This document shows, in pieces, positions 5,893-62,844 of a DNA stretch of 64,000 nt. The DNA lies in contig CDPCPM010000207.1 in NCBI GenBank assembly GCA_976551045.1, forward strand, positions 5,518,001 to 5,582,000, in the 5' to 3' direction. Under the pieces are notes generated by a model, which saw nothing but the letters and a program-made list of their open reading frames with translations, was not told where the DNA came from and made no database searches. Source of the DNA: Glaucostegus cemiculus (Eukaryota). The number at the start of each line of letters is the position of its first letter. The first letter of the stretch is position 1. The translations under genes were made by a program, and so were the position numbers.

Positions 5893-6000
5893 TCACATCC
5901 TGCGGACTTTCCGTGGTCGGCAGCCATTGTGGGGGATTGGAGTGTCGTCCGTAATTGAAACCACCTGGAGACCACCCATACTCAATCCTTTTATGGCAGA
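5893..6000 (-). CDS. MRPS11: MRPS11 coding exon 6 (last): [35 protein letters not shown]
   Basis: uS11 C-terminal signature [10 protein letters not shown]; pyrimidine tract and AG acceptor; phase 0; TGA stop at 5895-5893. Confidence 0.97.
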
Positions 6001-6067
6001 CTGCAATAGAAAAATAGCAACATTTTTTTCTTACATCCATATCCTCGAAAGTATTTAAAAGGCATTG

Positions 6068-17219: not shown

Positions 17220-17349
17220 CGCTGCTGCTGAAATGCCGGCCGTCTGAGCAGCAATTGGGGTTCCTTTCTTTGCATTCTTAAAGCCTTCAGTACCACATGA
17301 AGTCCGCACCATACTTTGTCCATCGTGGGTAGTAACCTGAATGTGTGTG
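17220..17349 (-). CDS. MRPS11: MRPS11 coding exon 4: (N)[43 protein letters not shown]
   Basis: SCGTEGF.NAKKGT..AAQTAGI matches vertebrate MRPS11; AG/GT boundaries; 130 bp, phase 2/0. Confidence 0.97.
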
Positions 17350-18388
17350 CTTTGAAAAATACAATAGTGAGTGTGAGATGGAAACAGATAGGAAAATAAT
17401 CAATAGAAATTTGTTAACCACCTTAATTACCACAAATTTATTTTAATTGAGATAAAGAATGTTAATTGCTGATGCACAATCCCATGTCAATTATAGCAGA
17501 GTTCACAAAGACTAAAAGATGGCTCCTCCCTATCTGGGCTGCAAGAGACCCTGATCTCAGACTATATTGTGGCGCTTTTTCTATTTCCTACAAAATTCAC
17601 GTTAGGACCTCCTAGATAAGATCTCTAACTGGTACCAAACTAGGAATAGTTTAGTGGTTCTGCTGCCTGAGATGACGCAACAGTCATTTCAGCCAGCAGA
17701 AGAAACTACCAACCCGAACCAAGGTATCAGAGGCAGATGGACTACAGCAGTCAATGTAATGAAGGTAGGGAGAGAGGGAAAGTGATAGAGCACAGGGTGA
17801 AGTTGGGATTAAAGAGAAGGTAGAATTTTGATAGACATTATGTTCTGTATTGACTGCCTTGAATTATTATTATTGATTACATTTGGTTGTTCACTCTAGC
17901 GTGGCTCAGTGTTAATTTTGTTTAATATCATCTGGGCAGTTTTTATTTTAACAGTTCTATTTAAATGGAAGTCACTGTTTTTGAGGCACAATACATTCCT
18001 TACACCACTTGGAAGGTTTTAGTGCAGTACTGATTTTGTACAGTCATTTCTTCTCCTCTCACTAGTTTGCTCCCATCAAACTTTGCTCCTGAGGGCATAG
18101 GTTTTGCCAATGACCCTGAATGAGTCTTAAAGTGGATTTCCACACCCCCACCACATGGGCAACAAGTGTTTTGGAGTTTTGATTGTGACATTCACTAAGC
18201 CAAGCCCAATTCTGTCCCCAACTAATACTCAGGTACACATTTATGAGTAAGAATCAAGGCAGAGCAACAGGAATCCCTGCTAATGTTTCCTCTTTTTTAA
18301 CCCAGAGTATCAAAGGTGATAATAACGTTGCAACCAAGATGTGGCTTAGCTTCAAAAACCTTGATTTATTTAGATTATCATGACTTAC

Positions 18389-20620: not shown

Positions 20621-21092
20621 TAAAAGCAATAACCTCCAGATGTCAAAAATCTAAGAGAATGCTGGAAATACTCAGGTCAGGTAACATCAATGGTGAAAGA
20701 AATTTAAAAAAAAACAGAAACTGTTGAAACCACTCAGCAAATCAGACAGCATCTACAGAAAGAAAAAGAATTAATGGTTCAGGCTGAAGACTCTTCATCA
20801 GAACTGGGAAAAACAGAAAAACTAATTAGATACAAGCCGCAGAGAGGACAGGGAAGGGATGATTAGGATAAATAGGTTAAGGGGGACAGTGAGAGGGTGA
20901 TAATGTAAAGAAAGACTGGAGGACCTCTACAACTTATCCCCAAGGCATTCTGGGTCTCACTCTAATCCAAATGTTCCCTCTGTCCTATCCAACTCTCCCT
21001 CTACCTTCTCTGCAGCCTAAAACTAACTTGTTTTTCTTTGCTTCCCAGTTCTGACAGAGGGACTTCAACCTGAAATGTTAACTCTGTTTCTC

Positions 21093-21971
21093 GTCGGAGC
21101 TCGTCGGAGGCGGCACCGTCTTGAAGGCCCGGGAGCCTCGTGGTGGCGTCGGGATGCGGGCGGTGAGGGGGCTGCTCGGGCCGGAGGTGGTCGGCCTGCG
21201 GAGTCGGAATTCGGGTCGGAGGTCGTCGGACTGCGAGGCTGGAATTCGGGTCGGAGGTCGTCGGCCTGCGGAGTCGGAATTCGGGTCGGAGGTTGTCGGA
21301 CTGCGAGGCCGGAGTTCGGGGCCGGAGGTCGTCGGACTGCGAGGCCGGAGTTCGGGGCCGGAGGTCGTCGGAATGCGAGGCCGGAATTCGGGTCGGAGGT
21401 CGTCGGACTGCGAGGCCGGAATTCGGGGCCGGAGGTGGTCGGACTGTGGGCCGGAGGTGGTCGGACTGTGGGCCGGAGGTGGTCGGACTGTGGGCCGGAG
21501 GTGGTCGGACTGTGGGCTGGAGGTGGTGCCGGAGGCGAAGGAGCCGGAGGTGGTCGGACTGTGGGCCGGAGGTGGTCGGACTGTGGGCCGGGGGTTGTTG
21601 ATGGTCTGTGGGCCCTGAGGTTGTAGGACTGGGGGGGTTGGAGGTGGTCGTCGGTGCGGGGTGAGGCAGGGGGGCTGTTAATGTTTTGATGTTTTTGTCC
21701 AGGTGTCCTTTGTTGTCTTTGATGTCTTTTGCACATGTATACGTGTAAGTGAAAATCGATAAATCGATCCTGAATTTAAGTTCAATCCCCTTAGCTTTTA
21801 AGGTGTAATGATCTATACTATGTATTCTGCCAAGTGTGTATGTGTCTCTGTTGGTTGTAATGTCATTTTTTTGTATGGGATGAGACCATGAGGAGGACGG
21901 TATATCGCTCCTCTGCATACTTTGTATGTATGTGGTTGTGACAATAAAACTGATTCTGGGGTTCTGATTCT
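21093..21971 (+). mobile_element. Non-coding, VNTR-containing retroposon with a Rex1/Babar-type LINE 3' end
   Basis: CpG-rich 35-36 bp and 22 bp tandem units. The last ~140 nt match the LINE tails at 48870-48995 and 60207-60335 (stem-loop, GACAATAAAA, CTGATT repeats). Confidence 0.75.
21181..21590. repeat. Bipartite GC-rich VNTR: ~35-bp CGGAGGTCGTCGGACTGCGAGGCCGGAATTCGGGT, then 22-bp CCGGAGGTGGTCGGACTGTGGG
   Basis: About 7 copies of the long unit, then about 6-7 of the short unit. Confidence 0.95.
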
Positions 21972-22035
21972 TTTTACAGATGTTGCCTGATCTGCTGAAT
22001 GTTTCCAGCACTTTCTGCTTTTATTCAGATTTCCA

Positions 22036-22574: not shown

Positions 22575-24392
22575 TCATTTACTGATAAAATTTACCACCA
22601 GCTCCAACAAGATTCCACCACCAGACACATCTTCCTCTCCCCTTTCAGCATTTCCAAAGGACCGTTTTCCACGACCACCCGGTGTGTTTTACTGTCCCCA
22701 ACAAACACTCATCATCCAATGGCACTTTCTCATGTAACTGCAGGAGATGCAATACCTGTTCTTTCACCTCTTCCCTTCCCACCATCCTGTGGCCCAAACA
22801 GTCCTTCCAGGTGAAGCAGTCATTCACTCGCACTTCTTCCAATCTAATGTACAGCTTATGGCATTCACAATGTGGTCTACCATACGTTGGAGAAATCAAA
22901 CACAGATCAGATGACCACTTTGTGGAGCACCCATGTACAATTGACCTTGAGCTTCTCTTCCCACAGATGTGGGCTATTTAAAAAATGTTCTGCTTTTATT
23001 AGAGCAACTAGTTTTTCTTTTGATTTTCACATTAAGTCTCCATCCCACTCCAATCTCTCTGTGGCTTCCTACAATGTGATAGCAAGACCCAACATAAGCT
23101 TGAGGAATAACACTTCATTTTCCACGAGCACATTGCAGCCTTCTGGACTTGATTTGGAACTCTCCAATTTCAGAGAATTTGCTTTTTCTGTCAGTACCAG
23201 AACTGGTCATTTCTTCCACAAGTCACAGAGTTGTACTGCACAGAAATGGGTCCTTCAGCCCAACTCATCGTGCTTATCATTGTTTCCATCTACATTAATT
23301 CCACTTGCCCACATTAGATCTGTATCCTTCTATGCCTTGCTTATTTAAGTGCCCATCTAAATGTTTCATAAACACAATGATTGTATCCGACTCCACCACA
23401 ACCACCTCTGGTAGCAGGTTCCAGACATCAATCACTCTTTCTGTAAAAAAACTTTGCACTCAAACCTTTAGAACTCCTTCCTCTCATCTTAAACCTATGC
23501 CCTCTTGTTTTTGATACCCTTGCCACGGGAAAAAGATTCTGATTATTTACCCTACCAATGCCCCTTATAATTTTATATACGTCAGTCAGGTCACACATCA
23601 GACTCCTTCAGTCCAGGGAAAACAAACTCAGCCTATCCAATCTTGCACCATGACTGACATCCTCCAATCCAGACAACATCCTGTTGAACCTCCTCTGTAC
23701 TCTCCCTGGTGCAGTCATATCCTTCCTAGAGTCTGGCGACCAGAAATGCACACAATATTCCAAGTGCAGTCTAAACAGAATTTTTAATAAAGTTACAACA
23801 TGACGTTAAGCATACCATATACCTTCATCATCACTCTCTCTTCCTGTGTTGAAGCTTTCAGAGAACTTGGGATGTGAATCTCTTGGTCCCTCTGGTCAAC
23901 ATTCCTTAGCGCTCTACCATTTACTGTATACATGTTCTACCCCTACAAGACTTCCTAAAATGCATTAGTTCACACTTGTCAGGATTAAATGCCACCTGCC
24001 AACACTCTGCCCATCTTTGATACGGGCTCAGTTTTTTTTCTCTCCATTAGCACAGTCTGGTCTGCTGGGCACAAACCAAAGCTCTGCTATTGCAATTCAT
24101 TCTGCTTCTTTGTATGTATTATAACCCTTTAGCTTCCCCCAATAATCATTTTGTCTGGAGGACTCGTATAACCTATCCCCATGTTAACCCTGGCCTCATT
24201 CTATCACAGACATTCCCTTTATCCTATCCTCTCCCCTGCGCTCCATAACTTAAAGGACATCAACCTCAAAACATCCTGATGCAGGGTTTTTACCCAAAAT
24301 ATCGAAAATTCCTTTACCCTCCTTCATAGATGCTGCTCGACCAGATTGTTTGTTGCTCCAGATTCCAGCATCTGCAATCTCTTGTGTCTCAA
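22575..24392 (+). mobile_element. Penelope-like element remnant (GIY-YIG region plus terminal repeat), interrupted by a CR1
   Basis: GTFSCNCRRCNTC...SSNLMYSL..SQCGLPYVGEIKHR..DHFVEH is a Cys-rich linker plus GIY-YIG endonuclease typical of PLEs; terminal-repeat-like sequence resumes at ~24015-24392. Confidence 0.8.
23218..24015 (-). mobile_element. CR1 fragment nested in the PLE
   Basis: Reverse complement of LEYCVHFWSP and KCELMHF motifs, with CR1 3' UTR. Confidence 0.85.
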
Positions 24393-26372: not shown

Positions 26373-26461
26373 GCGGTAATAAATCAGACCATCCACTGCA
26401 CCGGCCCAAGGCGCTGGGGGCTCATCCCAGTCCTTCTGCATCCAACAAGGCGGCGCCGACC

Positions 26462-26522
26462 CACCGGCGGCCGGTGACCCGCAGCAGGCGGCGGCCCAGC
26501 GCCCGGGCCCAGGCCCCGCTCC
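26462..26522 (-). repeat. Duplicate of the 3' part of MRPS11 exon 1 with its own GT donor (CG|GTGGGT)
   Basis: 26462-26504 is identical to 27181-27223 over 43 nt, and the match continues after a 6-nt insertion. Confidence 0.95.
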
Positions 26523-27180
26523 ACCCACTCCCCGGCCCCCGGGCCCCGCTCCACCCACTCCCCGGGCCCCGGGCCCCGCTCCACCCACTCCCCGGCCCCC
26601 GGGCCCCGCTCCACCCACTCCCCGGCGCCCGGGCCCCGCTCCACCCACTCCCCGGCCCCCGGGCCCCGCTCCACCCACTCCCCGGCCCCCGGGCCCCGCT
26701 CCACCCACTCCCCGGGCCCCCGCTCCACCCACTCCCCGGCCCCCGGGCCCCGCTCCACCCACTCCCCGGCCCCCGCTCCACCCACTCCCCGGCCCCCGCT
26801 CCACCCACTCCCCGGCCCCCGCTCCACCCACTCCCCGGGCCCCGCTCCACCCACTCCCCGGGCCCCGGGCCCCGCTCCACCCACTCCCCGGCCCCCGCTC
26901 CACCCACTCCCCGGGCCCCGCTCCACCCACTCCCCGGCCCCCGGGCCCCGCTCCACCCACTCCCCGGCCCCCGGGCCCCGCTCCACCCACTCCCCGGGCC
27001 CCGCTCCACCCACTCCCCGGGCCCCCGCTCCACCCACTCCCCGGGCCCCGCTCCACCCACTCCCCGGGCCCCCGCTCCACCCACTCCCCGGGCCCCGCTC
27101 CACCCACTCCCCAGCCCCCGGGCCCAGGCCCCGCTCCACCCACTCCCCGGCGCCCGGGCCCAGGCCCCGCTCCACCCACT
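26512..27180. repeat. MRPS11 intron 1 minisatellite, about 25 copies of a 23-30 bp unit with core GGCCCCGCTCCACCCACTCCCC
   Basis: Directly visible; G-run-rich on the MRPS11 sense strand. Confidence 0.95.
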
Positions 27181-27183
27181 CAC

Positions 27184-27248
27184 CGGCGGCCGGTGACCCG
27201 CAGCAGGCGGCGGCCCAGCGCCCAGGCCCCGCTCCGCACCCGCTGCAT
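27184..27248 (-). CDS. MRPS11: MRPS11 coding exon 1: MQRVRSGAWALGRRLLRVTGR(R)
   Basis: AGG-ATG start; Arg-rich, acid-free mitochondrial presequence (human MQAVRNAG); CG|GTGAGT donor, phase 2. The six exons sum to 597 nt (198 aa plus stop). Confidence 0.9.
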
Positions 27249-27754
27249 CCTCCGCCCGGCGCCCGCGCCTCAGCCTGGGCCCAGTGACCCCCAGTAACCC
27301 CGAGGTGGTGGGGGGGGGAGGGCGAAGGGCGCAGAAGGAAACGTCGTTATAACTTTACATTATTTACTCTCAACATTAACATCCCTGTTGAAAATAAAAC
27401 GTCTGTTTCGAGTGATGTTGTATAACGATTCCTCTTTTCGGAGTTAGCGGAGTTTAAAGTATTTGCTATAAAATGACCCCCCCCCTCCACCTCTGTTGGT
27501 CCCGCTCAACACAGACTGTTCCAATGTTCATTGATGGGGAGACGGGGATGGGAAAAATAATGTTCTCAGGAATGTGGCAGGAATATTGGAGTTTGGTGAT
27601 GGTCAAACATCACTAAACTGTCAGGTTTTAGATGTGTAAGCGCTGCACAGCGAGATGGTGCTGGCAGCGCCGGGAGTGAGGAGTGTTTGTGGGGTGGGTC
27701 CCCCCCCCCGGCCCGCAACACATCCCGACGTCCCTGACGTGAGGCAGCGCCGAG
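27249..27754. promoter_or_regulatory. Bidirectional promoter and 5' UTRs between MRPS11 and MRPL46, within a CpG island spanning ~26400-28160
   Basis: Start codons diverge 506 bp apart, as in the human pair. CRE-like TGACGTGA at 27735-27742; YY1-like GAGATGGCGGC over the MRPL46 ATG. Confidence 0.85.
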
Positions 27755-27997
27755 ATGGCGGCTGCGCTGCGCCGGCTGCCCGCGTTCAGCGGCCCCGCCG
27801 CCGCCGGAGCCGCCGCCGGAGCCGGGCTCCGACCCCCCGCTGCGGCCGCCGCCGGAGCCCGGGGCTTGGCGCAGCGCGCCCCACAGCCGGCGGCCGCCGG
27901 TTGGCAGCTGTGCGGCGCCGTGTGCCTGCAGCGCGCCGCCGTGGTGTCGCGGGAGATGAACCCGACGGAGAGCGCGTTCGCGCGGCTGCTGCGGCAG
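27755..27997 (+). CDS. MRPL46: MRPL46 coding exon 1 (81 codons)
   Basis: W.L.GAVCLQR..VVS....E..FARLLRQ matches human WRLLGALCLQRPPVVS...LLQQ; CAG|GTGGGG donor, phase 0. Confidence 0.95.
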
Positions 27998-28053
27998 GTG
28001 GGGGCGGGGGCGCGCACCGGGGCGCGCTGGGGCGGGGGCGCGCTGGGGAGGAC

Positions 28054-28065
28054 ACGCATGCGCGC
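28054..28065. promoter_or_regulatory. NRF1-like site ACGCATGCGCGC in MRPL46 intron 1
   Basis: Close to the NRF1 consensus TGCGCATGCGCA; NRF1 is a known regulator of nuclear-encoded mitochondrial genes. Motif match only. Confidence 0.5.
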
Positions 28066-28162
28066 TGCCGTCAGCAGCCGCGCAAGTTCTTCTTCGACCG
28101 AAAACGTTGTGTTTGACAACAAAACCTTTGGGGATCGGTCGGTGGGCGGCGGGGGCAGCGTC

Positions 28163-29055
28163 TGCCGCCCACCCCCTGACTCCCACCCCTGCCGCCCCCT
28201 GACTCCCGCCCCTGCCGCCCCCTGACTCCCGCCCCTGCCGCCCCCTGACTCCCACCCCCTTGCCTCTCACCCCCCTGATGCCCACCCCCTTGCCTCCCAC
28301 CCCCTGATGCCCACCCCCTTGCCTCCCACCCCCTGATGCCCACCCCCCTGCCTCCCACCCCCCTTGCCTCCCACCCCCCTTGCCTCCCACCCCCCTTGCC
28401 TCCCACCCCCCTTGCCTCCCACCCCCCTTGCCTCCCACCCCCTGATGCCCACCCCCCTGCCTCCCACCCCCCTGATGCCCACCCCCTTGCCTCCCACCCC
28501 CTGATGCCCACCCCCCTTGCCTCCCACCCACTTGCCTCCCACCCCCTTGCCTCCCACCCCCTTGCCTCCCACCCCCTGATGCCCACCCCCCTGATGCCCA
28601 CCCCCTTGCCTCCCACCCCCTTGCCTCCCACCCCCTTGCCTCCCACCCCCCTGATGCCCACCCCCTTGCCTCCCACCCCCTGATGCCCACCCCCTTGCCT
28701 CCCACCCCCTTGCCTCCCACCCCCTTGCCTCCCACCCCCTTGCCTCCCACCCCCTTGCCTCCCACCCCCCTTGCCTCCCACCCCCCTTGCCTCCCACCCC
28801 CTGATGCCCACCCCCCTGATGCCCACCCCCTTGCCTCCCACCCCCTGATGCCCACCCCCCTTGCCTCCCACCCACTTGCCTCCCACCTCCCTGCCTCCCA
28901 CCCCCTGATGCCCACCCCTCTGCCTCCCACCCCTCTGCCTCCCACCCCCCTGATGCCCACCCCCTTGCCTCCCACCCCCTGATGCCCACCCCCTGATGCC
29001 CACCCCCTGATGCCCACTCCCTTGCCTCCCACCCCCTGATGCCCCCCACCCCCTG
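28163..29055. repeat. MRPL46 intron 1 C-rich minisatellite: 24-bp CCCCTGACTCCCRCCCCTGCCG units, then mixed CCCCTGATGCCCA / CCCCCTTGCCTCCCA units
   Basis: Directly visible, about 0.9 kb. Confidence 0.95.
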
Positions 29056-29402
29056 ATTGCCCTGCAGAAGGTGGCAGTGAGCTGCCACCTTGAGCTGCTG
29101 CAGCCTTCCCATTCTGCCAAAGGCATCCCCTTGGCCATTGGGGACGGAGGTCCCAGGATTTAGACCCAACGCCAGTGGAACGGCTGTAAATGTTCCTGCT
29201 GGGATGGTGCATGACTTGGAGGGGAACCTTAGTGCATTCCCGTGCACCTGTTGCTCTCCCCCCTTCTTGGTGGTATGAAGTACTGTCAGAGTAGTTCGAG
29301 TAATTGCAGTGTACTCCGGAGATGGTACCCATGGATTTGGTAGTGTGGTGGTGATTTAGGGTGTTTGATGGGACGACGGGCAGTTGGGCTGCTTTGTCCT
29401 GA
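29050..29402 (-). mobile_element. 3' end of a non-CR1 LINE (clade uncertain)
   Basis: Minus-strand translation has KVPLQVMHHP...GSKSW remnants; the terminus TGCCC..CCCT.ATTGCCCT resembles the old SINE tails at 40675 and 50490. Confidence 0.65.
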
Positions 29403-29404
29403 AG

Positions 29405-30580
29405 GATCATAGAATCATATAGCACAGAAGCAGGCTCTTTGGCCCACCCATCTGTACTAATGCCATTTCCATTAATTGACCCCCTAGCCTATTCCTTGGC
29501 GATTCAAGTACTTTTCCCGTGTTTTTAGAGGTGTATTTGCACAGGCAAGCAGAGGGCATTTCGAGGTGTTCCTGCCTTATAGATATCCTTTAAGGCATGA
29601 TGCAGTTTAGAAATGGGGCAGTGAACGTTCACTGGATTGATTTCTGTGACCAATGGGTTGTCGTTGGAATAAAAAAATTGAGCAGAATGGATATAAACTC
29701 TCTGGAGTTCAAAAGAATGAGAGGAGATTTTATGGGGGGGTGGTTTGAAGGGTTTATCCTGATAGATACTGTGTGGATGTGGGGGAATTAAACTGGGGGC
29801 ACAGTCTCTCAATAAGGGGTTTAGTGACTTCAGACTGAAATGCAGACTGGAATTTCTTAGAAGGCTGTAAATCTTTGAAATTTTCGACTCCCAGAGAGCT
29901 ATGGACACTGAGTCGTTGATCTTGGGAATATAGACATTTTTTTCAGGGGAATCTAATTTTTTATGAGGATCGGGGCAGAAAGTACAGTTGAAATCAAAAA
30001 TCAAGATTAGCTAGGATCTCATTGAATGGCAAGACAACTCTAGGAGTTGTATAGCTTATTTCTGCTATTTCTTATGTTTTATGTTTATATTAGGATCTGT
30101 CAAAGAAGTAGGTTTTCAGGAGCATTTGGAGGAAAGAGGTAGTAAGACCATAAGATATGGAAGCAGAAGACTCTGGGTGAAGAAATTCCTCCTCAACTCA
30201 GTTCTAAAGGGACATCCCTTTATTCTGATGCTGTGCCTTCAGATCCTAGACTCTCCTGTTAATGGAAATATTCTCTCCACACCCATTATCAAGGCCTTTC
30301 AGTATTCGGTAGGTTTCAGTGAGATTCCCCCCCCCTCATCCTTCTGAACTCCAAGTACAGGCCCAGAGCCATCAAATGCTCCTTGTACATTAACCCTTTC
30401 GTTCCTGGGATCATTCTTGTGAACCTCCTCTGGACCCTCTCTAGTGCTAGTATACCTTGGGTACAGGGCCCAAAATCGCTCACAGTATTCCAAATGTGAT
30501 CAACGCCTTATAAAGCCTCAGCAGTACATTGTTGCTTTTATATTCTAGTTCTCTCGCTAACATTACATTTGCCTTCCTTA
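29405..30580. mobile_element. Cluster of CR1 remnants (29405-29520 -, ~29660-30075 +, ~30140-30580 -)
   Basis: SLEFKRMRGD and EYCERFWALY motifs, and CR1 tails. Confidence 0.7.
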
Positions 30581-30889
30581 TTAGTGAGACAAAGAAATTT
30601 ATGGAAGGAATTAAGCTACAAAGTTAGAGCTATAACTTAAATTTGGGGGTCAGTAAAGCTCCAATTTGGACTAGTACAGAGAGTTATGGGGTGGGGATGG
30701 CTTTTGCTGAGGGCATAGATACACTTGAAGTAAGCCATTTATTTAGATTTGAGCAAAGCATTTATTTGATTGTCTTTGATTAAAATTATTTATCTGCTGT
30801 GAACCTTTCAGTGGCTAGGTTACTGTGATGCTCTCTTTAAAAGCCTGAGGACACATTGCTATGTTAACAGCAGTATGAAATGGCTAAGG

Positions 30890-31660
30890 AAACCACAGTG
30901 GATGCTAAAGATCTGAAAGAGAATTGTCACTTGCTAAAAATGCTCAGCAATTCGGGCAGCATCTGTGGAGAGAAAAATCAAAAGTTAATGTTTCAGCTCA
31001 ATTAAACTTGTGTCAGCACTGAAAATTGTTGATATTTTAAGCAAGTACAGGCAGAAAAAAGGTGGAGAGGAAAGAAAGAACTAAAACTATGAAGCTGAAT
31101 GATGGAAGAGACAATGGTGCAAGCAAAAAGGGGATGGTTAAGGAACATGAGAAAGGAGATATACCGGGGAGATGTAAATAGTGAATGATTAGTCTGGAAG
31201 ACTAAAGTTTGCCGTTCTGAAAGCTATTCCTTGAGCTTGCATTGAACTTCATTAGAACAATACAGGAGGCCGAGGTCAGAAAAGTCAGTGTAGGAGTTGG
31301 GTGGAGAGTTCAGGTGACAAACTGGAAGTTCAGAGAAACACTTGTGGCCTAAACTGAGATAATTCTCAATGCGGTTATCCAGTTTTCATTTAGTTTCCCC
31401 TGTGTAGACAGGTTGTGTCATGGACAACAAGAAGATACAAAATTAAAGAAAGTTTCACATTGGAGGAGTTTTGAGGGCCTTGAAAATTTCTGCTTCCCAT
31501 TATTCAAGAGCAAATATTGTATCTCAGTACACTAGCAAATAAAGATATCATGGGAACCACAGGACATGTTGGGGATGATTGAGGAGTGGATCAGGGTGTC
31601 AAAGAAGGGATAGCCCCTTCAGAATGCAAAGAAGGTAGGCAAGGGGAAGTGTGTTGAATG
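30890..31660 (-). mobile_element. Degenerate Penelope-like element (terminal repeat plus GIY-YIG remnant)
   Basis: CTCAGC..GGCAGCATCTGTGGAGAGA terminus; internal similarity to the reverse complement of 22600-23170. Confidence 0.6.
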
Positions 31661-31799
31661 TTTTAGAAAGGTTTTTGAATCTAGAGGTGAAAGTGAAGAG
31701 GGTGAGAAAAGAGTGAGAACATTGAACAAAAAATGTTGCGGTTATACTGTCTTAATCTTGTTTACTAAATTTTCCTTGGCCTTGCCTGATACATTTATG

Positions 31800-31995
31800 A
31801 GTTGAACCAGTGTTCAACAACTTAACTGATTATCTAAAAGTGATTATCTTGTCATAATCACTGATGTTTATAGAACCTTGTACAAATTGGTGGATTTCCT
31901 ACACTGTAGCATTGTAGAAGTTATTTTGGCTGTAAGTCACTTTTCAGTGTTTCCTGAGGTCAAGAAAGAAGCACTATAAATGATCTCTTTTCTTT
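31800..31995 (+). mobile_element. Deu-type SINE 3' remnant
   Basis: TTTCCTACA...TTGGCTGTAAG...CCTGAGGTC...CACTATAAATG. Confidence 0.55.
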
Positions 31996-32489
31996 CCATT
32001 CAGCACATTACAAAAGGTCTTTGGTATTGGAAGGCAGGTGAAGTTGAATGATAGAACAGATAATGACAGTTTTGACCAGATGGTCTCTTTTAATGATCTT
32101 GGTTGTGGGATGAAAATTGTGATCAATATTTAATGGTGATGTTGCTGCAGGATACTCTCATTGTGAGATCAAAAGTTCTTACTTTCTTTCTGGTAATGTA
32201 TAAATAATGTAAGATTCTTATAAATAATCACAGTAACAAAAAAATGTTGTTTACAAAGAGTATAAATTCCCAGTGGATGCTGTATATGCACTGCACATAA
32301 CCATTAATTTACTTATGTTGACATAGTGCATCCGTTGTGAAAAATATTCATGACCCCTAGTCCCTGGCAAGTGGCAAAATAATCAGAGCATCACTGACAG
32401 AATAGAAAAAAATACCTTGTGTACTGATTGGTCATGGCTCAAGACTACACAAACATTTAAGAAGAAATTGTACGAAGAAGGCTCCCATA

Positions 32490-33510
32490 GAAGACAGAGG
32501 GTCATGGTAGATGGAGTGTATTCCGCCTGGAGGTCGATGACCAGTGGCTATCTGAGGAATTTGTTCTGGCACCCCTGCTCTTTGTGATTTTTCTAAATGA
32601 CTTGGATGCGGATATGGAAGGATGGGTTAGTAAATTTGCTGGTGACATGAAGGTTGGTGGTGTTGTGGATAGTGTAGAATGTTGCTGTAGATTACAACAG
32701 GACATTGATAGGATGCAAAGCTGGGCTGAGAAGTGGCAGATGGAGTTCAACCTGGAAAAATGTGAAGTGATACGCTTTGGAAGGTTGAATTTGAAGGCAG
32801 TTTATAAGGTTAGTGGCAGGACTCTTAGCAGTGTGGAGGAATGGAGGGATCTTGAGGTCCATATCCGTAGATTCCTCAAGGTTGCCATGCAGGTTGATAG
32901 GGTTGTTAAGAAGGCGTATTGTGTGCTGGCCTTCGTTAGTCGGGGTATTGAGTTCAACAGCCACGAGGTAATGTTGTAGCTCTATAAAACTCTGGTTAGA
33001 CCACACTTAGAATATTGTATTCCATTCTGGTTGCCTCATTATGGAAAGGATGTGGAAGCTTTAGAGAGGGTGTAGAGGAAATTTACCAGGATGCTGCCTG
33101 GATTGGAGGGCATGTCTTATAAGGATAGGTCGAGTGAGCTGAGACTTTTCTCTTCAGAGAGAAGGAGGATAAAAAGTGACTAGATAGGAGTGTACGAGAC
33201 AATAAGAGGCTTTTACCCAGGGCGAAAATGGTTAACATGAGGGGACGTAATTTTAAGGTGATTGGAGTAAGGTATGGAAGGATGTCAAAAGTAGGGTTTT
33301 TTTTACACAGAGAATGATGGGTGTGTGGAACGCATTGCTGGCAGAGGTGGTGTAGGCAGATACATTAGGGACATTTAAGAGGCTCTTAGATAGCAACATG
33401 AATGATAGGAAAATGGGGGGATATGTGGGAGGGAATGGTTAGATAGATCTCAGAGCAGGATAAAATGTCAACACAAGGCTTGTACTGTGCTGTAATGTTC
33501 TGTGTTCTAA
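32490..33510 (+). mobile_element. CR1 LINE, about 1 kb of the RT C-half and 3' UTR, decayed
   Basis: IFLNDLD...VSKFAGDMKVGG...LQQDIDR...WQMEFN.EKCEV, with in-frame stops. Confidence 0.95.
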
Positions 33511-33639
33511 TGCTACAAGGCCATGCTGTATCGGGTTCTTCCCTGTCTGCATTGAGTTATTTGATCTCTTGCTGAGTAGAAACCTGAATGCTGTTATTGA
33601 CAACTGTACCTTGGGTCAGAAAGGAGTAAAAACGTAATT

Positions 33640-33990
33640 GGAGCAACAGACATGGAGGAACTCGGCAGATCAGGCAGCATCTATAGAGGGAAATGGACAG
33701 TTGACGTTTCAGGTCAAGCCCCATCATCTGTATGTTCTTGTCCACCAGACATTATGAATTGGGGATAGGCCACTCAACCCCTCGAGCCTGTTCTGGCACT
33801 TAATCAGATACTGGTTGATCTGAATGTAACCTCAGCTTTGTTTCCTGAAGGATTATTAAGTCCAGGTGAAGGGTCTTGACCCAAAATATTGACTGTCCAT
33901 TTTCCTCCACAGATATTGCCTGACCCACCGAGTTCCTCCAGCATTTTGTTTGATGCTCCAGATTCTAGTATCTGCAGTCTCTGGTGTATT
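33640..33990. mobile_element. Two inverted short Penelope-like termini separated by a CR1 tail remnant
   Basis: 33640-33730 is the reverse complement of ~33860-33960; both break at the hammerhead-like motif. Confidence 0.65.
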
Positions 33991-34564
33991 CAGCTTGCTA
34001 ATTCTGTGTGTCTAGGTGCACATTTGAGGAATAGCAATGTGGGAGGGCAGCTTGTGCTTGTGACACTACTCATCATGCCATTTTCATCAAAGAGTAAAGT
34101 AATTCTTTTCTTGATGATAGCTGATTGCAGTTGCTGGAAATGTGCAGACTGTGGATTTTGAATCTTGAGATTGAAACAGCAGGAGTCCTGATCTCATCTT
34201 TTAAATGTAGCAATTGTCAGCTTTGGATATAGCAACTGCTTTAGAAAAGAAATATTGCACACCGATTCATCAAGTGCACCTTGAATCATTCTCATTTTCT
34301 AATTTTAATTCTGCTTGTTGTGAAAAAATGGATTTGGAAGCTGTGTTTAAAATGCCTACTGGTAGGTAACTGGTAGAATCTTGGGGTAGTTGATGGGGAT
34401 GTGAGGATAATAAAATGGGATTAGCACAGGTTTAATATAAATGAGTGCTTGATGTGGATTTGGTGGGTAGAAGGGCCTGTTTCTGTGCTGTATGACTCTG
34501 AATCTATGGTACATTCAGTTCATTCCTGGCTTTGTAAAATGCAGATGATTTTGACACTTTACAG

Positions 34565-34763
34565 ATGGAGCTGGAGAAAAGCCTCTATTCTGACCATGAG
34601 CTTCGAATCTTTGAAGATGAAGAGAGAATTCGAAGAAGGCAGGCATACGACTATGATTCAGATGAAGAGGAAGATGTTGGCCAGGACATTGTGACTGGCC
34701 AAGATCTGGAAGATATGTGGGAACAGAAGCTCAGACAGTTCAAATCTGCTGATAGAGTACAAG
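34565..34763 (+). CDS. MRPL46: MRPL46 coding exon 2
   Basis: [14 protein letters not shown]...[10 protein letters not shown] matches human [14 protein letters not shown]...[10 protein letters not shown]; cag acceptor and G|GTCTGT donor; 199 bp, phase 0/1. Confidence 0.97.
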
Positions 34764-35899
34764 GTCTGTATCTGTTACTGCTTTGTACCTAGAGTGTAAT
34801 ATTTGTCATAATGTAGCTTCAGTTCTTGTGCTGCATAGACACTGTGTTTTCTACCAGAGATGTGAATAGAAGCAGAAGTAGGCAATTTGACCCAATGTGT
34901 TTTCTCCACCATTTAATAAGTTTATGGCTGTTTTTTTTTAAACTTTAGAACCACTTCTTTACACAAACCCAGGGTACAAATGACCTGACTTACAGAAATC
35001 CAACTTCACACAAATTCTCCCATACATTTTTAACATATTTCTCAGGGTAGAAATAATTAAAATGTTTAATGGTATTCATTAATCACTGGATACAGTATAT
35101 ATTCCATTAGTTTAATTATAGGTAGCGTTAGGGTGACTACTTACCTCTATACTGATTTCATTAGCCGCCTTTTTCGTTTTTTTAATAGGTAAGTAAAACA
35201 CCCAGCACATAGAATATATTCTTGGAATTTCTTATATTTCACTTCTATATGTTAAAAATGTTGGCTTTATTAACAGTTTCAATTAATTAATTGTGGTTTA
35301 GAAGGTTATTATCCTGATTTTAATCTCTTTAAAGCTGACTTGTGTATTTATATTTGCTTCACAACACAAATTGATCTTTCCTCTGAGAACTCCCATTTCG
35401 ACAGATTTCTTACAGTTGTACCACGGGACCCATGTGGATTCTTTTTATCTCCACTTTACAGAGAATATAGTTCCCCCCAGTTCTAGCTGCAGCCCTTTCA
35501 GGATTTCTCAGGATAAAGTAGAAAGATTCGGGGCACTATTTTTCTGCACTGTACAGTATTTGGCTTTGAAACTATACTTCACTATTTCTGTAATTAAAAA
35601 AAATGATTGACAGGCAGTCTACTTGTTTTGGCAGTCTAAAATGGCTGGGATTCAGCACAATGTGATTCCTTGTATTCACAAAGAAGTGCATCTTGCTGAG
35701 TATGGAATACTTTAAACTGCAATCTCACTGATCTTTGACATGAGTTGCCTTGGGGAGAAGATTGCAGTGTTCTTAAATTTCACAAAGTTTCTATTGGAAT
35801 ATAGTTTTGAGTTGGAGCAACTATTGACAAAAGTAATTTTGTGGGTTTGGGAACTCAGTTTAAGGTAAAGTTACACATATTAAATGCTTTACATAAAAA

Positions 35900-37510
35900 A
35901 ACAATGGCTGGAAATGCTCAGTGGGTTGGGCAGAATCTGTGGAGAAAAGGTGAGTTAGGGGGATTCTGACTAGCGAGAACAAAAGCAAAATCTGATAGGG
36001 TGGAGACTGAGAGGGACTGGATGACACAAGTGGTAGCGGTGCTGGCTGAGAGGATTATAAGGGCTTGTTAATTGTAACTGTTCTGTCTGAAAGAGGTTTA
36101 ATTAGAAGGCTGTGAATGAAAGTGGAGGAGGAGAGAGGAAAGGGAATAAAGTTCTGAAACTGAGAGGTTCAAAACTACAGAAATCTGAACTAAATGTCGA
36201 GAATTCTAGAAACACATATGTCAGGCAACTTGTTTGGCGGAAGGAAAGCAAAATTAACACACGAGTCTTTCATCAGAGCTGGCTAGTTACAATAGAAATT
36301 AGAAAGTGATTATCTGAAATTATTAATTTATGTTAAGTCCTGATGGGGGAACTGTGCTAAATCAGAGGTGCTATTTCTCGAGCTTATGCTGGGTTTTGTT
36401 GGAATAATACAAGAAGTCAAGGGCAGGTCAAAGGGAAGGAGAATTAAAGTGGCAGGTCATTTGAAGTTCAGAATCACCTCTGGACTGGACATGGATGTTC
36501 AACGAAGCAGTTACCAAATCTACGTTTGGATTCCCCAGTGAAGAGATCCCATTGTGAAGAGATCCCATTGTGACTGCCTACGCAGAACTTATGGAGGTTA
36601 TATTCATTTCTTACATCTGCATAGCAAGACATCATTGGAGATGGAAGAATGAACCAGACCTTTTTTTTAGAGGAGTGATCCCTTTAGGATAATGAAAGGA
36701 GAGTGAAGGAGAGAATATGATGGAATAGGACTGAAGGTGGTGGAAATTGCGGAGGTTGATCCATTGAACATGGAGTCTGATGGGGGTAAAAGGTGAGGAC
36801 AAGAGGAACCCAACTTTTGCTTGAAGGAAGCGAGGGTGGCAGGAGAAGTGTGTGAAATGGAAAATACATGGTTGAAAGCTCTATCATCTATGGTGGAAGT
36901 GAAACTATGGTTTAGGAGACAGGAAGGCATCTTAGAAGCACTGAGGTGGAAGGTGTTGTCATAGGAACAATATGATAGTGCCAGAGAAATTAGAAGAATG
37001 GAACAGGTTTTTTTTGCAGGAAAGAGTTGTTGTTAAAATGGCTATGGAAATTTATGGGTTTGTAAGAGATATTGGTCATTAATCTATTCTCTGAGATGGA
37101 GGTAGAAACGTTGAGAAAGAGAAGGGCAGAGTCAGAGAGAGATCTTGTGAAAGTGACTGCAAGCAGGAACTTGGCAGCTAAAATGATGAAACATTTGAGT
37201 TGTGTGAGATCAGGGATGTAGCACCATCACAGCCATCTAGGTCATAGAAGATCCAAGTAGGCCTAAACAAGGACTGCTCCATATACCCTGCAAAGGGATG
37301 TACGGTTTTGACCCATGTGGGTTTCCGTAACTCGACTTTTGATTTGGAGGAAGCGAGTGGAGTTAAAGGAGAACTGTACAGTGCAAGAGCAAGTTCAGTC
37401 AGAAGGATGGTGGTGGAAGGAGAGTGGTTTGTCTTGTGCTCAAGGAAGATGTGAAATGCCCACAATCCTTCCTGGCGTTAGATGGAGATGTAGAGGGACT
37501 GGCTATCCCC
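35900..37510 (-). mobile_element. Degenerate Penelope-like element (tandem termini plus RT remnant)
   Basis: FAGYMEQSLF resembles PLE RT LFVGYVEQSLF; VPLVLTFYP motif; termini at ~35900 and ~36170. Confidence 0.7.
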
Positions 37511-37879
37511 ATTAAAAGTTGTATCCTAAAATCACACTGAAACACTGGGATTTTTATTTGCAGCTCAACTCTGCTAACAGCATACTGTTTATTATGGACC
37601 CTTTCAGAAATGTATACTGTCAATCATCCTGTGTTTGTAATATATGGTGCTCAGAGAAAAATTTGTAATGCTTTGCTTTTTAAAATTACCTCCAACGTCC
37701 TTGGAATGCTTTTAATTTTATTCTACCTTCAAATGTTCCGAATGATCAAAAGGGAGTGAGAAAAATATTGTCAATATTGTGGAGAACTCATGCTAGTGGA
37801 GACCCTTGAAGGATTCCAATGTTCTGTGCAATTTCAAGAGGGACCTTTTATAAATAGTTTCAGGTTCTCCTGAGTAACA

Positions 37880-38470
37880 GGACAGGTAGACAAGGTGGTT
37901 AAGAAGGTATGCATTAGCTGGAGCATAGAATATAAAAATGGCAAAGTGATGCTCAAGCTCAGGATAGCAGTTAATCCGCAGTCAGTACTGCAAGCAGTCT
38001 GGTCACCCCAGTACACGAGGAACGTGGAAATGAGAGAGGAAACAGAAGAGGTTTAGGAGAACATTAGCAGGTGGAGAATTTTAGTTTTGGTGAAAGATGG
38101 GGCAGGCTAATGTATTTTTTTTGGGGGGGGGGTGCAGGTTGGGTGGAAATAAAGGATGTTATGGGGGTGAGCAAAGATGATTATCTTTCCCTTAGCAGAG
38201 AGGTCAGAAAGTTTAGAGCATAGATTGAAGGTAGTTATTTAGAAGAAATAGTTGAAATGTTGAAAGTGCTGTTAAGAATTCTCTTTGCTCAATGGATGAT
38301 GAGAATCTGAACTTGCCTAAAATGGTGAGAGAGGCAAAAGCCTTCAGGGCATTTTAAAAACTGCTTGACCATAGGTTATTGACTGAGAACCGGAAAGTGA
38401 ACTTTGCCTTAATAGCACTTTTTGGATGGGAAGGGATTGAATGGATTTTTAATGAGTTGTTACATTTCTT
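37880..38470 (+). mobile_element. Old CR1 remnant
   Basis: CAGGTAGACAAGGTGGTTAAGAAGG...CTGGTCACC motifs. Confidence 0.6.
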
Positions 38471-39149
38471 TAATTATCGCAAATCTTAAGTGCTTGTAAG
38501 CAGTGTTCCTTTATCCTTTTTTTTCCATGTAATTAGAGCAAATAACTTATCCTGAGCTATCCCAACAGTTTCATTATTGGATTTATAGAAACAACAAAAT
38601 GTCATGATGTTTTATTTGGAACTTTTGTACAATGTGGTAGGAAGTGGATTACAACAAAGGTCACAGAAGGGAAGGGAAAGTTTTGCTTGGATTCAATGTT
38701 GCATCTTTCTAAAACTTTATAATGGGTTTCTTGATAACTGAACTGAGTATAATAACACCAGTGTGGTACTGAGAAATCTATTGGTTTGGTACCAGTTCCA
38801 TCTTCAGCTTTTGCAGTGTTAACTATTTTTCTGGAGAAAAGTGGAGCTAGTAGATAGCCTTGTTTCTTTGTGTTAAGGAGCAAAAAATTAGCAGGCTCTT
38901 GCTCCTTAATATATGCCAGAGGATAAAAGTAGACTGTCAGATCAGACTGCTTTTGTGATTGTGCTCAATAGCTGAATATTTTACCACTCCAAGCATTTAC
39001 ATTAAATGACCATTTGAGAAAAGTAGTAGAGTGTAGCCCGCGTTCACAAAACTACTCCAGAGCAGTTAGATCTAGGAGAATGGGGCAAAAATGGTGAGGA
39101 ATCATACATTTTCAAACAATACAGTCTGTCTTTCTTCTGAATTGGAAAA

Positions 39150-39495
39150 ACTCATAGCTCAGTCTTAAATATCAGAAGTGACACAATGGGTTCAATCCTG
39201 ACCTTTGGTGTTGTCTGCATAGTCTTTGTGCCTTCCCCTCTCATTGTGTTGGTTTCCCTTGGGTGCCCCAATTTCCTCGTACATCTCAAAGACATGCAGA
39301 TTGAAAGTTAATTAACCATAGTAAATTGTTGCTAGTGTGTAGGTGTGGGGTAGAATCGGGCTTGGGGGAGGGGAAGGGGTGGAATTGAGTGGAGTGTACA
39401 GGGAATAAAATAGGATGAGAATAAATGTTTGCTTGGTGGTCAATGCAGAGTTAGTGAGCCAAAGGGTCTGTTTCCATGCTGTATGACTCTGTGAC
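39150..39495 (+). mobile_element. Older HE1-like V-SINE
   Basis: GGGTTCAATCC B box, degenerate V core, GGGTCTGTTTCCATGCTGTATGACTCT tail. Confidence 0.75.
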
Positions 39496-39675
39496 TCGAA
39501 GAATCTCAGTTCCCAGGAATGATAATAGAACTATTAATGATTTGTTTGTAATTATTTATTGCAAATTATTCTTTGATAGGTAAATATTAAATAAATGTTG
39601 CTGAATCATTTCTTGAACAGTGCCCATAGTCATGCCAATCACTTTTCAAAATGTGTGTTTCCACATGCATCGTAG

Positions 39676-39849
39676 AAGCTGACAAGAAGAATGATAGATC
39701 AACATTGAACAGGCGATTGGATGAAAAGCTGCTACTGTTAATAAAAGAAAAAGTGGCGGATGAAGAGATCTGGTTGTTGCCACAGAGTTACTGGAAGCCA
39801 GGGGAAACCATGAGGCAGACCGCTGAACGCACCTTGTCTACTTTGTCTG
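39676..39849 (+). CDS. MRPL46: MRPL46 coding exon 3
   Basis: EADKKNDRSTLNRRLDEKLLLLIKEK...WLLPQ..WKPGETMRQTAERTLSTLS (Nudix-like fold region); tag acceptor and G|GTAAC donor; 174 bp, phase 1/1. Confidence 0.96.
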
Positions 39850-40217
39850 GTAACAACTTTTTTGGTAGCTTTTGATTTTGTTAGAATGATAGCATGGTAA
39901 AGCATAAGCAAAGGGCCATTTGGTCCATTGTGCCTGGGCCAGGTATTTCTCAATAGACCAGCAATAATTTGTCACTTTAGATATTTATGAACATTATTGT
40001 TTGTTTTCACTGTCCTTTCAGAGAATGCATCACACCAATTTGCAGTGGGAAATAAAACTTCTTGTATCTCCTTGGGTTATTTTGACAATAATTGTATTGT
40101 TTCCTGGCGTATTTAAGCTTGCTTCCTCTCATTTAAGGTTCTTGATACTTGGATTTGTTTCCTTCTCTTATTGTTTCCTTCGTTTTCCAACACTCCTCCC
40201 ACCATTACACTTTGCAG

Positions 40218-40480
40218 GAAATGAATTGCAAGCTGTTTTTCTGGGAAATGCTCCGTCCGGTTTCTATAAATACAAGTATCCCAAGGCTGTGCGAACTTCC
40301 AGTAGTGTTGGAGCCAAAGTATTTTTCTTCAAAGCCTTGCTGGTAAATGGAGATCTTAAGACGAGAAAGAAAGAAGACCACGTGTGGGTAACCAAGAGTG
40401 AGCTGAAGGACTACCTCAAACCAAACTATTTGAAGCAAGTTCATCGCTTCATCTTTGATAGCTCGACAATAAATGTTTAG
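40218..40480 (+). CDS. MRPL46: MRPL46 coding exon 4 (last)
   Basis: [17 protein letters not shown]...[11 protein letters not shown]...[15 protein letters not shown]; cag acceptor; TAG stop. Exons sum to 879 nt (292 aa plus stop). Confidence 0.97.
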
Positions 40481-47480: not shown

Positions 47481-48469
47481 GGGTATTACTGAATTAAGCT
47501 GGTATTTAATGTTCTGCAGATATCATCAGACCTTTGATACTTTGCTCAATTGACCCAGTTTAGCCAGAAATAGCTCCCTGTCCAGTCTAGAAATGATAGG
47601 CAGGGAGCTATTTAACTACAGTAGTGTTACAGATAAACCTGATTCTGTTCTTCCCTTATACAATGTCTGTTAATGAACTCCTCAGCACACAGGACAAAAA
47701 CAAAATCTCTCCTATCTGCCATTTAAACACCATAACGTTGATCAGTACACTGAAGTCTCTCAGATCTAGTAACGTAGTGAATTGTAGTATGATATGAACC
47801 AAGGCTATTGTATAAAATACATCAGGCTTCCTGTGATTGAAGATATGAATGTCATTGATTTCCAATTCCCCTTCAGTGCTGGAGATTATGGGGATGCTGA
47901 CCTCCTACACGAGCCTCTTGTTGCCAAGCAGGTTTAATCTATTCAGCAAACTCCTCATTAGGACGATAACGTGCATTGAGTAATGTGCAGGGATGTGAGA
48001 AGTGGCTCTGGAATGAGTTGAAGGAAATGGAACCAGGAAACGTGGTTAATAAATGGTTGAGACAAAATGGTTCATTTTAGATGATCATTAATAAGTCAAA
48101 GTGAAGGAGTCTCAACTCAAAATGATGCCTGCTACAGAGCTATTTATTTCCATTGTCCTCCCATTATAACGTTTACAGAATCAGAAAGCTCAATGCAAAA
48201 GTAGGCTAGTGTCAGATCAGATTCCATTTCCCTATTCATTCCCTATCCTTTTTGATTATGGTCTTCAAGAATTTGATTCCTTCTTAAAGATCATGCTTAG
48301 CACCTTCAAATTCTGTCTTTCAATTGCACTACAAGTTCTCTTTTTCCTCTTTTATACTTCTAATACTGATTCCAGTTTATTCTCCTCATTACAGATTCAC
48401 AAATCATAGCTGTATCCTTTTCGACTCTTAAATTCTTAACACTCTTCAGTTCTGGTGAATAGAGCCCAT

Positions 48470-48996
48470 GCTGGACAGAAGTCCCTCCAGAGGATAGTGA
48501 GGGCAGCAGAGAAGATCACTGGTGTCTCTCTTCCCTCCATCGCTGACATATACAAGGTATTAGGAAGGCCAAAAATATAATGTCGGATCCTTCTCACCCC
48601 TCCCATCATCTCTTCACACTCTTGCCGTCTGGAAGAATGCTCAAATGCATCAAGGCGAGAATGACCAGGCTGTGCAATAGCTTCTTCCCGCAAGCCATCA
48701 GATCAGTGAACTCTCTCATTCCTCCATCTATCCTGCCAACACTAAAGGATGCTAGACGCTCAGAAACGCACCAGCACTTTAAATGTCCACCGCCAGTTCG
48801 CTCATTTTAAAACTATTTATTTAAGCTGCAGAATTTAACTTAATTTTCGTGGTTTTAATGTTCTTTTTCAGTGTGTGTCTGTGTGTCTCTTCTGTTTAAT
48901 ATTTAATGTGACATGTACCTGTGGAGGACGGTATCTCGCTCCTGTGCACACTGTGTGTGTGTGTATGGTTGTGACAATAAAACTGATTCTGATTCT
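48470..48996 (+). mobile_element. Rex1/Babar-type LINE 3' fragment
   Basis: DPSHPSHHLFTLLPSGRMLKCIKARMTRLCNSFFPQAIR; tail GACAATAAAACTGATTCTGATTCT. Confidence 0.92.
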
Positions 48997-60206: not shown

Positions 60207-61020
60207 CAGAATCAGAATCAGTTTTATTGTCACAACCATATACATACATAGTATGCATAGGAGCGAGATACCGTCCTCCTCAGGTGCTCGTCCCATTAAA
60301 TAACAAACAACAGAGACACACAGACACACTTAACAGAATAAACATTAAAAACTATGGAAGTTAAAATTAAATTAATACGCAGATTAAATTAAAAATGGCC
60401 GGTAAATAAATAAATAGTTATTAAAGTGAATGGGCTGGTGTCGGGCATTTAAAGTGCTGGTGCATTTCTGTGCACCTAGCATCTCTTAGTGTTAACAAAG
60501 GAAGATGGAGGGATGAGAGAGTTTGCAGTTCTGATGGCTTGCGGAAAGAAGCTATTGTTCAGCTTGGTCGTTCTTGCCCTGATACATTTGAGCCTCCTCC
60601 CTGATGGCAAAATTGTGAAGAGGTGATGGGAGGGGTGAGAAGGGTCGGCCATTATGCTTTTGGTCTTCCTCACACAACTGTCTTTGTATATGTCTGCGAG
60701 GGATGGAAGCGAGACACCTATGATCCTCTCCGCAGCCCTAACTATCTTCTGGAGGGACTTCCGCCCAGCAGCTGAGCAGCTTCCAAACCAAACAGTGATA
60801 CATTGGGTTAGGATGCTCTCAATGGTCCCTCTATAGAAGGTTTTCATGACGGAGGGATGGGAGTTTGCTTTCCTAATTCTCCGCAGGAAGTAGAGGCATT
60901 TCTGAGCTTTCTTCGTGAGGGCCGTAATGTTAGTGGACCAGGTCAGGTCGTGGGTGATGTGCACCCCCAGGAACTTGGTGCTGCGTACTTGTTCCACAGC
61001 AGACCCGTTGATGCACAGAA
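60207..61020 (-). mobile_element. Young 5'-truncated Rex1/Babar-type LINE
   Basis: Uninterrupted frame INGSAVEQVRSTKFLGVHITHDLTW...KKAQKCLYFLRR...ESILTQCITVWFG...PSGRR...NSFFPQAIR; (CTGATT)n tail. Confidence 0.95.
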
Positions 61021-62735: not shown

Positions 62736-62844
62736 TAATTCTTTTGATTACCCTATTGTTGTACCTTCAAGGATCTCCCCATATTCACTTTGAACTTGAA
62801 GATGAAAATTTAGCTTTCAGCTTGAAGATGAAAATTTAAAAAAA

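Follow-up and report, generated by a model that had tools for sequence, protein, structure and literature searches.

A young ORF-less retroposon family with LINE-homologous ends and an internal VNTR in Glaucostegus cemiculus

Background

A stretch of 64,000 nucleotides from the genome of Glaucostegus cemiculus (assembly GCA_976551045.1, contig CDPCPM010000207.1, positions 5,518,001 to 5,582,000 of the forward strand), referred to here as the window, carries an insert that combines a CpG-rich leader, a VNTR, an AT-rich segment and a LINE-type tail. In a preliminary description, this insert was taken for an SVA-like composite retroposon mobilised in trans by a Rex1-type LINE. The locus raises the question of whether such an element was put together from unrelated parts or developed within a single LINE lineage, and how it spreads. 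Based on the sequence comparisons described here, it is quite probable that the insert, truncated at its 5' end, belongs to a young family of about 1,400 copies that lacks an ORF. Both ends of this family are homologous to a LINE, and it is likely transcribed from its head and copied in trans via the 3' end shared with that LINE.

Results

The ends of the insert could be fixed by the alignment of its flanks and by contig joins. The joined flanks form one continuous alignment to positions 62830-63072 of the window on the minus strand, and position 21092 is joined to ~21975-21992 in contigs of 4/4 runs, which may represent paralogous copies of the host repeat. The description of an insert at 21093-~21971 splitting a multicopy repeat therefore holds, while the assignment of the host repeat as Penelope-like was not confirmed. 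The features of the locus and the relevant neighbours are listed in Table 1.

Table 1. Features of the insert, its host repeat and other annotated parts of the window
Feature	Position	Strand	Basis or content
Host repeat, left part	20914..21092	+	Flank alignment, contig join
Head remnant (3' third), homologous to LINE 5' end	21093..21180	+	Head consensus match from ~170
VNTR part 1, 35-36-bp units	21181..21455	+	TRF, copy comparison
VNTR part 2, 22-bp units and fixed terminal variant units	21426..21662	+	TRF, copy comparison
Decayed old tail of ancestral family	21675..21773	+	Alignment to older family vs shuffles
Newer tail from LINE 3' UTR, end GACAATAAAA	21774..21949	+	LINE subfamily B alignment, tail tree
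CTGATT microsatellite end, slightly degenerate in window copy	21950..21971	+	Sequence; other loci end alike
Host repeat, right part	21972..22034	+	Flank alignment, contig join
Putative partner LINE, 5'-truncated copy	60208..61013	-	End of RT ORF, PF09004 domain, 3' UTR
More distant LINE subfamily, short copy, same tail type	48469..48996	+	77% to 60-kb copy
MRPL46, four exons	27755-40477	+	Exon mapping
S11-family exons	5899-6003, 17220-17360	-	Exon mapping

The leader and body of the insert (21093-21660) are indeed GC-rich, with 71% GC and a CpG observed/expected ratio of 1.18; in the bulk of the window, this ratio is 0.20-0.26. The two-part VNTR was recovered by TRF as two arrays, one with a period of 35 bp (21176-21455) and one with a period of 22 bp (21426-21595), and the terminal variant units of its second part are also present in the intermediate copies L254, L266 and L267. 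Position 21093 is a 5' truncation point and not the start of the element as previously assumed, since full-length copies begin ~170 nt further 5'. The full head comprises ~256 nt, of which the window copy lacks the first ~170 nt, and its 5' junction shows a 3-nt CTC microhomology.

The AT-rich segment that was considered unique has two sources: ~21675-21773 matches the tail of an older family described below, and the sequence from 21774 onward matches the LINE 3' UTR. Its first 85 nt align to the old tail with a score of 67, reached by 0/1000 dinucleotide shuffles (165/1000 for the LINE), and its next 85 nt align to the LINE with a score reached by 0/1000 shuffles (310/1000 for the old tail). 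A loss of 32 nt of old tail after ~21736, between two CAT triplets, leaves a relic old terminus at 21745-21773. The similarity of the final part to the LINE ends in the window could be reproduced at 60213-60340 (82% over 136 nt) and 48920-48991 (88% over 72 nt). The newer tail contains two candidate stems, at 21890-21913 and 21915-21929. The GAGGAG/CTCCTC stem reported as common to the window LINEs is specific to the element, as the LINE copies read GAGGAG/CTCCTA and GTGGAG/CTCCTG, and only 1/5 tails has this hairpin in its best predicted fold. The stem at 21915-21929 is predicted in 5/5 tails, and across 11 distinct rows 98.5% of it is paired. This pairing was equalled by 182/500 shuffles, with no pair changed on both sides, and the predicted folds of the tails were not clearly better than those of shuffles (z -1.0 to -2.4).

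With the start of MRPL46 5.8 kb downstream and a minus-strand exon of the S11 family at a distance of 3.7 kb, the insert probably lies in an early intron of MRPS11, in antisense orientation. An mL46 exon of the window shares 96% identity with a protein of a ray, which points to a batoid host. The exon arrangement suggests that MRPS11 and MRPL46 likely form a head-to-head pair, with a CpG-rich promoter near 27200-28170. Two minisatellites lie in this region. A C-rich minisatellite of 660 bp with 23/30-bp units (within 26456-27269) is enclosed by 90-bp direct repeats at 26456-26545 and 27175-27269. On the minus strand, both repeats contain an arginine-rich open stretch followed by GT at the end of each copy, so that the likely end of the first MRPS11 exon and its splice donor may be duplicated. 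A CpG-poor, C-rich minisatellite of 880 bp with a 15-bp unit in ~54 copies occupies the start of MRPL46 intron 1 (28172-29054). A degenerate frame on the plus strand at 22589-22981 with CxxC and YxGE motifs had only a weak GFA match in Pfam and is presumably reminiscent of a Penelope-like GIY-YIG fragment.

An exact 30-mer had 1,397 matches in the genome (control: 0; some matches are duplicated segments), which excludes a single-copy sequence. The AT-rich segment as query yielded 871 candidates, and the best 40 of these 871 were all at 100%. Full-length copies of 898-1124 bp were obtained for 46/60 loci (16/30 selected by tail and 30/30 selected by head), giving a full length of the ORF-less young family of ~0.9-1.2 kb. 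Between the ends of these 46 copies, only head, VNTR and tail are found, with no RT or other ORF, and in all 30/30 head-selected loci the sequence continues through VNTR and tail with no ORF. In the full-length copies, the VNTR is 335-554 bp long and consists of ordered 35-38-bp and 22-bp units, with the first and the last units fixed. The copies share a 3' end of CTGATT repeats that vary in length, and a T-run of at least 5 nt precedes the 5' end in 31/43 copies. The 5' end of full-length copies is fixed, and unrelated DNA without RT lies beyond it. An interpretation as the 3' UTR of an autonomous LINE was therefore rejected.

A further 40 copies were drawn from the first 100 listed matches, skipping those already seen. 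Of these, 18 are complete to the 5' end, 10 are broken in the head and 12 further 3'. Their divergence from the consensus is 1.2%, mainly due to shared subfamily variants, with a private non-CpG change of 0.26%. The many copies with one structure and common subfamily variants show that the young family amplifies as its own unit. The postulated young non-autonomous VNTR family is thus supported by dispersed copies with a common 3' end, 5' truncation in 22/40, a VNTR varying between 335 and 554 bp and no linked RT. Target-site duplications of at least 7 nt were not in excess (2/43 loci vs 4/300 controls). As previously stated, there is no tRNA head: ARAGORN reported 0/5 loci, no A box was found, and a single B-box-like match is restricted to the tail. 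Rfam returned one chance-level match and none in the head. The Pol III head with A and B boxes that characterises SINEs of tRNA, 5S or 7SL type is absent from the element.

Most young loci have unrelated flanks; L065-L067 and L072/L073 are duplicates with common flanks. The three copies L065-L067 lie 4-8 kb apart on contig C85, and their common flanks indicate amplification together with a satellite array. The copies L005, L011, L014 and L065-L067 are located inside a ~100-bp satellite, and in satellite insertions the T-run of the element seems to extend a T-run of the target. A comparison of the 5' ends of L001-L090 with those of L124-L203 showed T-runs of 0-64 nt before young and double-tail copies and A-runs before the LINE and the old family. 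In contigs of other organisms, 21140-21805 was without cover in X3, X5 and X13 except for one trace bin in X13, and the middle of the older family's body was without cover in X3, X5, X12 and X13; as contigs show presence only, these gaps were not counted as absence.

The LINE copy at 60208..61013 is matched at 94-97% from query position ~294 by 39 other scored copies among the best 40 listed. By walking 5' from the LINE fragment of the window, 20 full-length loci of mainly ~3.5 kb were obtained, which share a start motif with the element. Their consensus contains one frame of 1063 codons with endonuclease, RVT_1 and PF09004 domains in Pfam. An intact frame was found in 0/20 full-length loci, and 6/59 protein matches were open over 1027-1057 codons with no stop in the match, three of which were confirmed. 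A partner LINE with long open frames whose tail type is found on the element, as was anticipated, is therefore present. RT fragments are very numerous in the genome, with 376,224 first-look candidates. LINE subfamily B is 1.5% from its consensus. The young family, with its low private change, is less diverged than any LINE copy examined; hence, no LINE of the same age was found among the 30 protein-selected and 20 full-length loci, the nearest being 0.7-0.9% from consensus.

According to the available part of PMC6274825, Rex1 elements have an AP endonuclease upstream of the RT, and their conserved 3' UTR leads into an oligonucleotide repeat that varies. The partner LINE has this layout, with the endonuclease upstream of the RT and a 3' UTR with an oligonucleotide repeat, features that are not exclusive to Rex1. 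Its best protein homologues are unnamed teleost RVT_1+PF09004 proteins (47-69%), and a named Rex1 protein was not among the homologues returned. We take the combination of RVT_1 and PF09004 to be the Rex1 layout; a published link between the two was not found in the literature searched. Based on this domain layout, the 3.5-kb endonuclease-RT LINE is likely a Rex1/Babar element.

Both ends of the element can be traced to this LINE lineage. The head consensus aligns collinearly to nt 5-243 of the LINE consensus with 175/235 identical positions (75%) and a score of 188, compared to a maximum of 73 in 200 shuffles. Identity to LINE subfamily B is 87% over 177 nt for the tail of the young family and 93% over 179 nt for the LINE tail of the intermediate copy L267, and the young tail differs from the LINE by 10% over the last 75 nt. 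The element thus has a LINE 5' part, a LINE 3' UTR with terminal repeat, no ORF between them and its own amplification, as is characteristic of bipartite non-autonomous LINEs (SIDEs). Since the head aligns in order with the 5' end of the LINE and the tail corresponds to the LINE 3' UTR, the element is, judged by these alignments, an internally deleted bipartite LINE derivative with a VNTR rather than a composite of unrelated modules like SVA. The head is only 75% similar to the sampled LINE, so its parent is not among the LINEs sampled.

A shorter relative was found through locus L003 (G000:C14:31485947-31489117), where a young copy has inserted into an older member's tail. Both have the same orientation, and a T-run of ~60 nt precedes the young copy. 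This older family of ~520 bp has the same head, usually 1-2 repeat units and its own tail, and its 19 copies are 6.0% from consensus. VNTR-rich relatives were searched with a ~13-unit copy as query, and 21 were examined, with 8 overlapping or already-seen loci dropped. Most of them (18/21) combine 9-38 units with the old tail; one of the others has an old tail with a long TG run, one is interrupted and one (L267) has the new tail. In the old-tail copy L256 (G000:C254), the TG stretch of the tail has grown to a microsatellite of ~90 bp. L254 and L266 carry the young linker together with the old tail. Among the loci retrieved for the older and intermediate families, none had an ORF between head and tail.

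In L267 and in 30/30 double-tail loci, the old terminus is directly followed by ~180 nt of LINE 3' UTR with 93% identity to subfamily B. The young family has the same junction of old terminus and LINE in decayed form, with the 32 nt between the two CAT triplets missing. The divergence decreases from 6.0% in the older family to 1.4% in double-tail copies (n=15; 1.5% for LINE subfamily B), followed by the young family. Apparently, 13/30 double-tail loci are duplicates of one insertion. These contain 24-46 repeat units and the remaining 17 loci 4-14, so the VNTR partly grew after insertion. In the head tree (24 rows), the young copies are nested in a ladder leading from the old family through intermediates to L270 and L266 with 93-100% support. 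The tail tree (26 rows, 73 columns) groups young copies and L267 with the LINE, apart from the old tails, at 100/100, with the bootstrap not settled. At the level of these alignments, the two trees disagree in the way a tail swap predicts. A comparison of the repeat unit with a LINE motif was matched by 46/1000 shuffles, so that a derivation of the unit from this motif is only suggestive.

The young copies contain 11 CpG transitions in 1,413 CpG bases, compared to 38 changes in 14,816 other bases, and private CpG transitions occur at ~3 times the non-CpG rate. In the old family, 169/626 CpG sites have decayed (27%), compared to 4.5% elsewhere. An earlier sample selected by identity showed no excess of CpG transitions. 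The idea of portable CpG islands is therefore consistent with the composition of the element but doubtful in view of this decay, as CpGs are lost faster than other bases in both young and old copies. Such preferential decay points to islands that are methylated and short-lived.

Discussion

A history in four steps could account for these observations. An internal deletion in an older LINE of a Rex1/Babar-like clade would have created the bipartite element of ~520 bp. Subsequently, one GC-rich motif of ~26 bp in the head region may have expanded into the VNTR, in source elements as well as in copies already inserted. A copy with a shortened old tail would then have gained the last ~180 nt of the then-active LINE subfamily behind its old terminus, either through template switching of the reverse transcriptase or through read-through of a copy inserted into a LINE 3' UTR. 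This double-tail hybrid would have given rise to the current young family.

For its mobilisation, the element would be transcribed by Pol II from the LINE-derived head, the start of which we take to resemble a YY1 site. Pol II transcription from the head has been proposed for bipartite LINEs in the accessible text of PMC5786205. The LINE protein would recognise the 3' end by pairing of the stringent type (PMC3747384, available in part), and target-primed reverse transcription would begin in the microsatellite, with frequent 5' truncation. The 5' end may be joined by short homology without target duplication, where the variable T-run likely anneals to T-rich target DNA. The tail swap likely restored a good match of the passenger to the active RT, and the VNTR is most likely GC-rich spacer sequence that is tolerated and may strengthen the promoter. 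A more far-reaching interpretation, for which we see some but clearly the smaller chance, is that of a self-assembled, SVA-like retroposon of one lineage with every step preserved, in which VNTR and tail swap were selected for raising mobilisation and the passenger outlasts and out-copies its driver.

Several other explanations were considered. The head, perhaps with the VNTR in a 5' UTR, and the tail could have belonged to an autonomous LINE subfamily not yet seen, with the swap taking place between LINEs. Monomer-bearing promoters are known in LINEs. The moderate similarity of the head to the sampled LINE would fit this scenario, as would the fact that each search scores the best 40 copies in a genome with several hundred thousand first-look RT candidates. 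Against this, every head-selected locus runs into VNTR and tail without an ORF, the fetched older and intermediate loci contain no ORF between head and tail either, and a LINE 3' UTR would not explain a relic old terminus directly before the new 3' UTR. We therefore regard an unseen autonomous LINE as unlikely, and an internally deleted LINE derivative that acquired its newer tail as the better interpretation.

In the original proposal, an unrelated leader, a captured VNTR, unique DNA and a LINE tail form an SVA-like composite that serves as a portable CpG island. The element is truly chimeric at its 3' end, and the order of its unit arrays, with the first and the last unit fixed, is also found in SVA and LAVA, as described in the available part of PMC4432496. 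This origin is nevertheless largely refuted and has become very improbable: the leader and the supposedly unique segment trace back to the LINE lineage, the VNTR arose inside the family, starting from one unit in the older family, and neither the lack of a target-site duplication signal nor the preferential CpG decay fits. A spread mainly by DNA-level duplication, or carriage by a LINE of a different clade, is the least credible of all. The duplicates with common flanks among young loci (L065-L067, L072/L073) and double-tail loci (13/30) show that duplication does occur, but the flanks of most loci are unrelated, their 3' end is fixed, with a varying microsatellite, and their 5' ends are staggered; the tail is specific to the partner LINE. 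The bipartite LINE derivative mobilised in trans is thus retained as the preferred explanation.

If correct, this adds a likely Rex1/Babar source to those of bipartite non-autonomous LINEs, in a vertebrate and at high copy number. In the available parts of two surveys, RTE, Ingi, Vingi and R2 are the only sources named (PMC5786205), to which PMC6740152 adds CR1, and neither Rex1 nor tandem repeats are mentioned there. In the literature searched, no account of a Rex1-derived bipartite or VNTR-bearing element was found, which may nevertheless be catalogued in Repbase or Dfam. The family offers a natural series for the origin of a VNTR retroposon and for a passenger tail that changes along with its LINE, both of which are difficult to approach in apes. 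One assay could directly compare versions with the old, the double or the young tail and with 1 to 40 units, and the ~1,400 very young, length-variable insertions are possible population markers if they are polymorphic.

Among known systems, the closest are the ORF-less bipartite LINEs or SIDEs, such as RIME, NARTc, Bov-A, RTE-N2_Lch, the Vingi derivatives, the R2 SIDEs and the CR1-derived Persaeus. As far as the accessible parts of PMC5786205 and PMC6740152 describe them, they consist of LINE 5' and 3' ends only, lack a Pol III head and are amplified as their own unit, like the element reported here. Unlike those listed, it has a large VNTR body and a tail from a younger LINE subfamily than its head. 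SVA, LAVA, PVA and FVA are also non-autonomous, with a central GC-rich VNTR in ordered arrays, a 3' part exchanged in evolution and VNTR change at the DNA level (PMC4432496, available in part). In contrast to this group, the element has a LINE 5' end instead of a CT-hexamer/Alu-like head and is not of L1 type. Insertions of L1 type end in poly(A). The element ends in CTGATT instead, shows no target duplication and has no modules from unrelated elements, so its likeness to the SVA group is convergent. EhSINE1 of Entamoeba is likewise non-coding, with 1-4 internal repeats of 26-27 nt and a 3' end of ~70 nt shared with a LINE, but its LINE similarity is confined to the 3' end, it has target duplications and it contains far fewer units (PMC2996970, in the part available). 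A LINE 3' end and microsatellite are also shared by UnaSINE with UnaL2, by SINE2-5_NV, which has a Rex1 tail, and by ERE4B, and tail replacement is known for SINEs (excerpts of PMC3747384 and PMC5786205). Unlike these stringent SINEs, the element has no tRNA head, keeps its old tail as a relic before the new one and has surviving multicopy intermediates. As the defining features of SVA elements and SINEs are lacking and the sequence features of bipartite LINEs are present, it is classified as a bipartite non-autonomous LINE, which would resemble the passenger of a stringent LINE in its presumed mode of mobilisation, and SVA and EhSINE1 in appearance.
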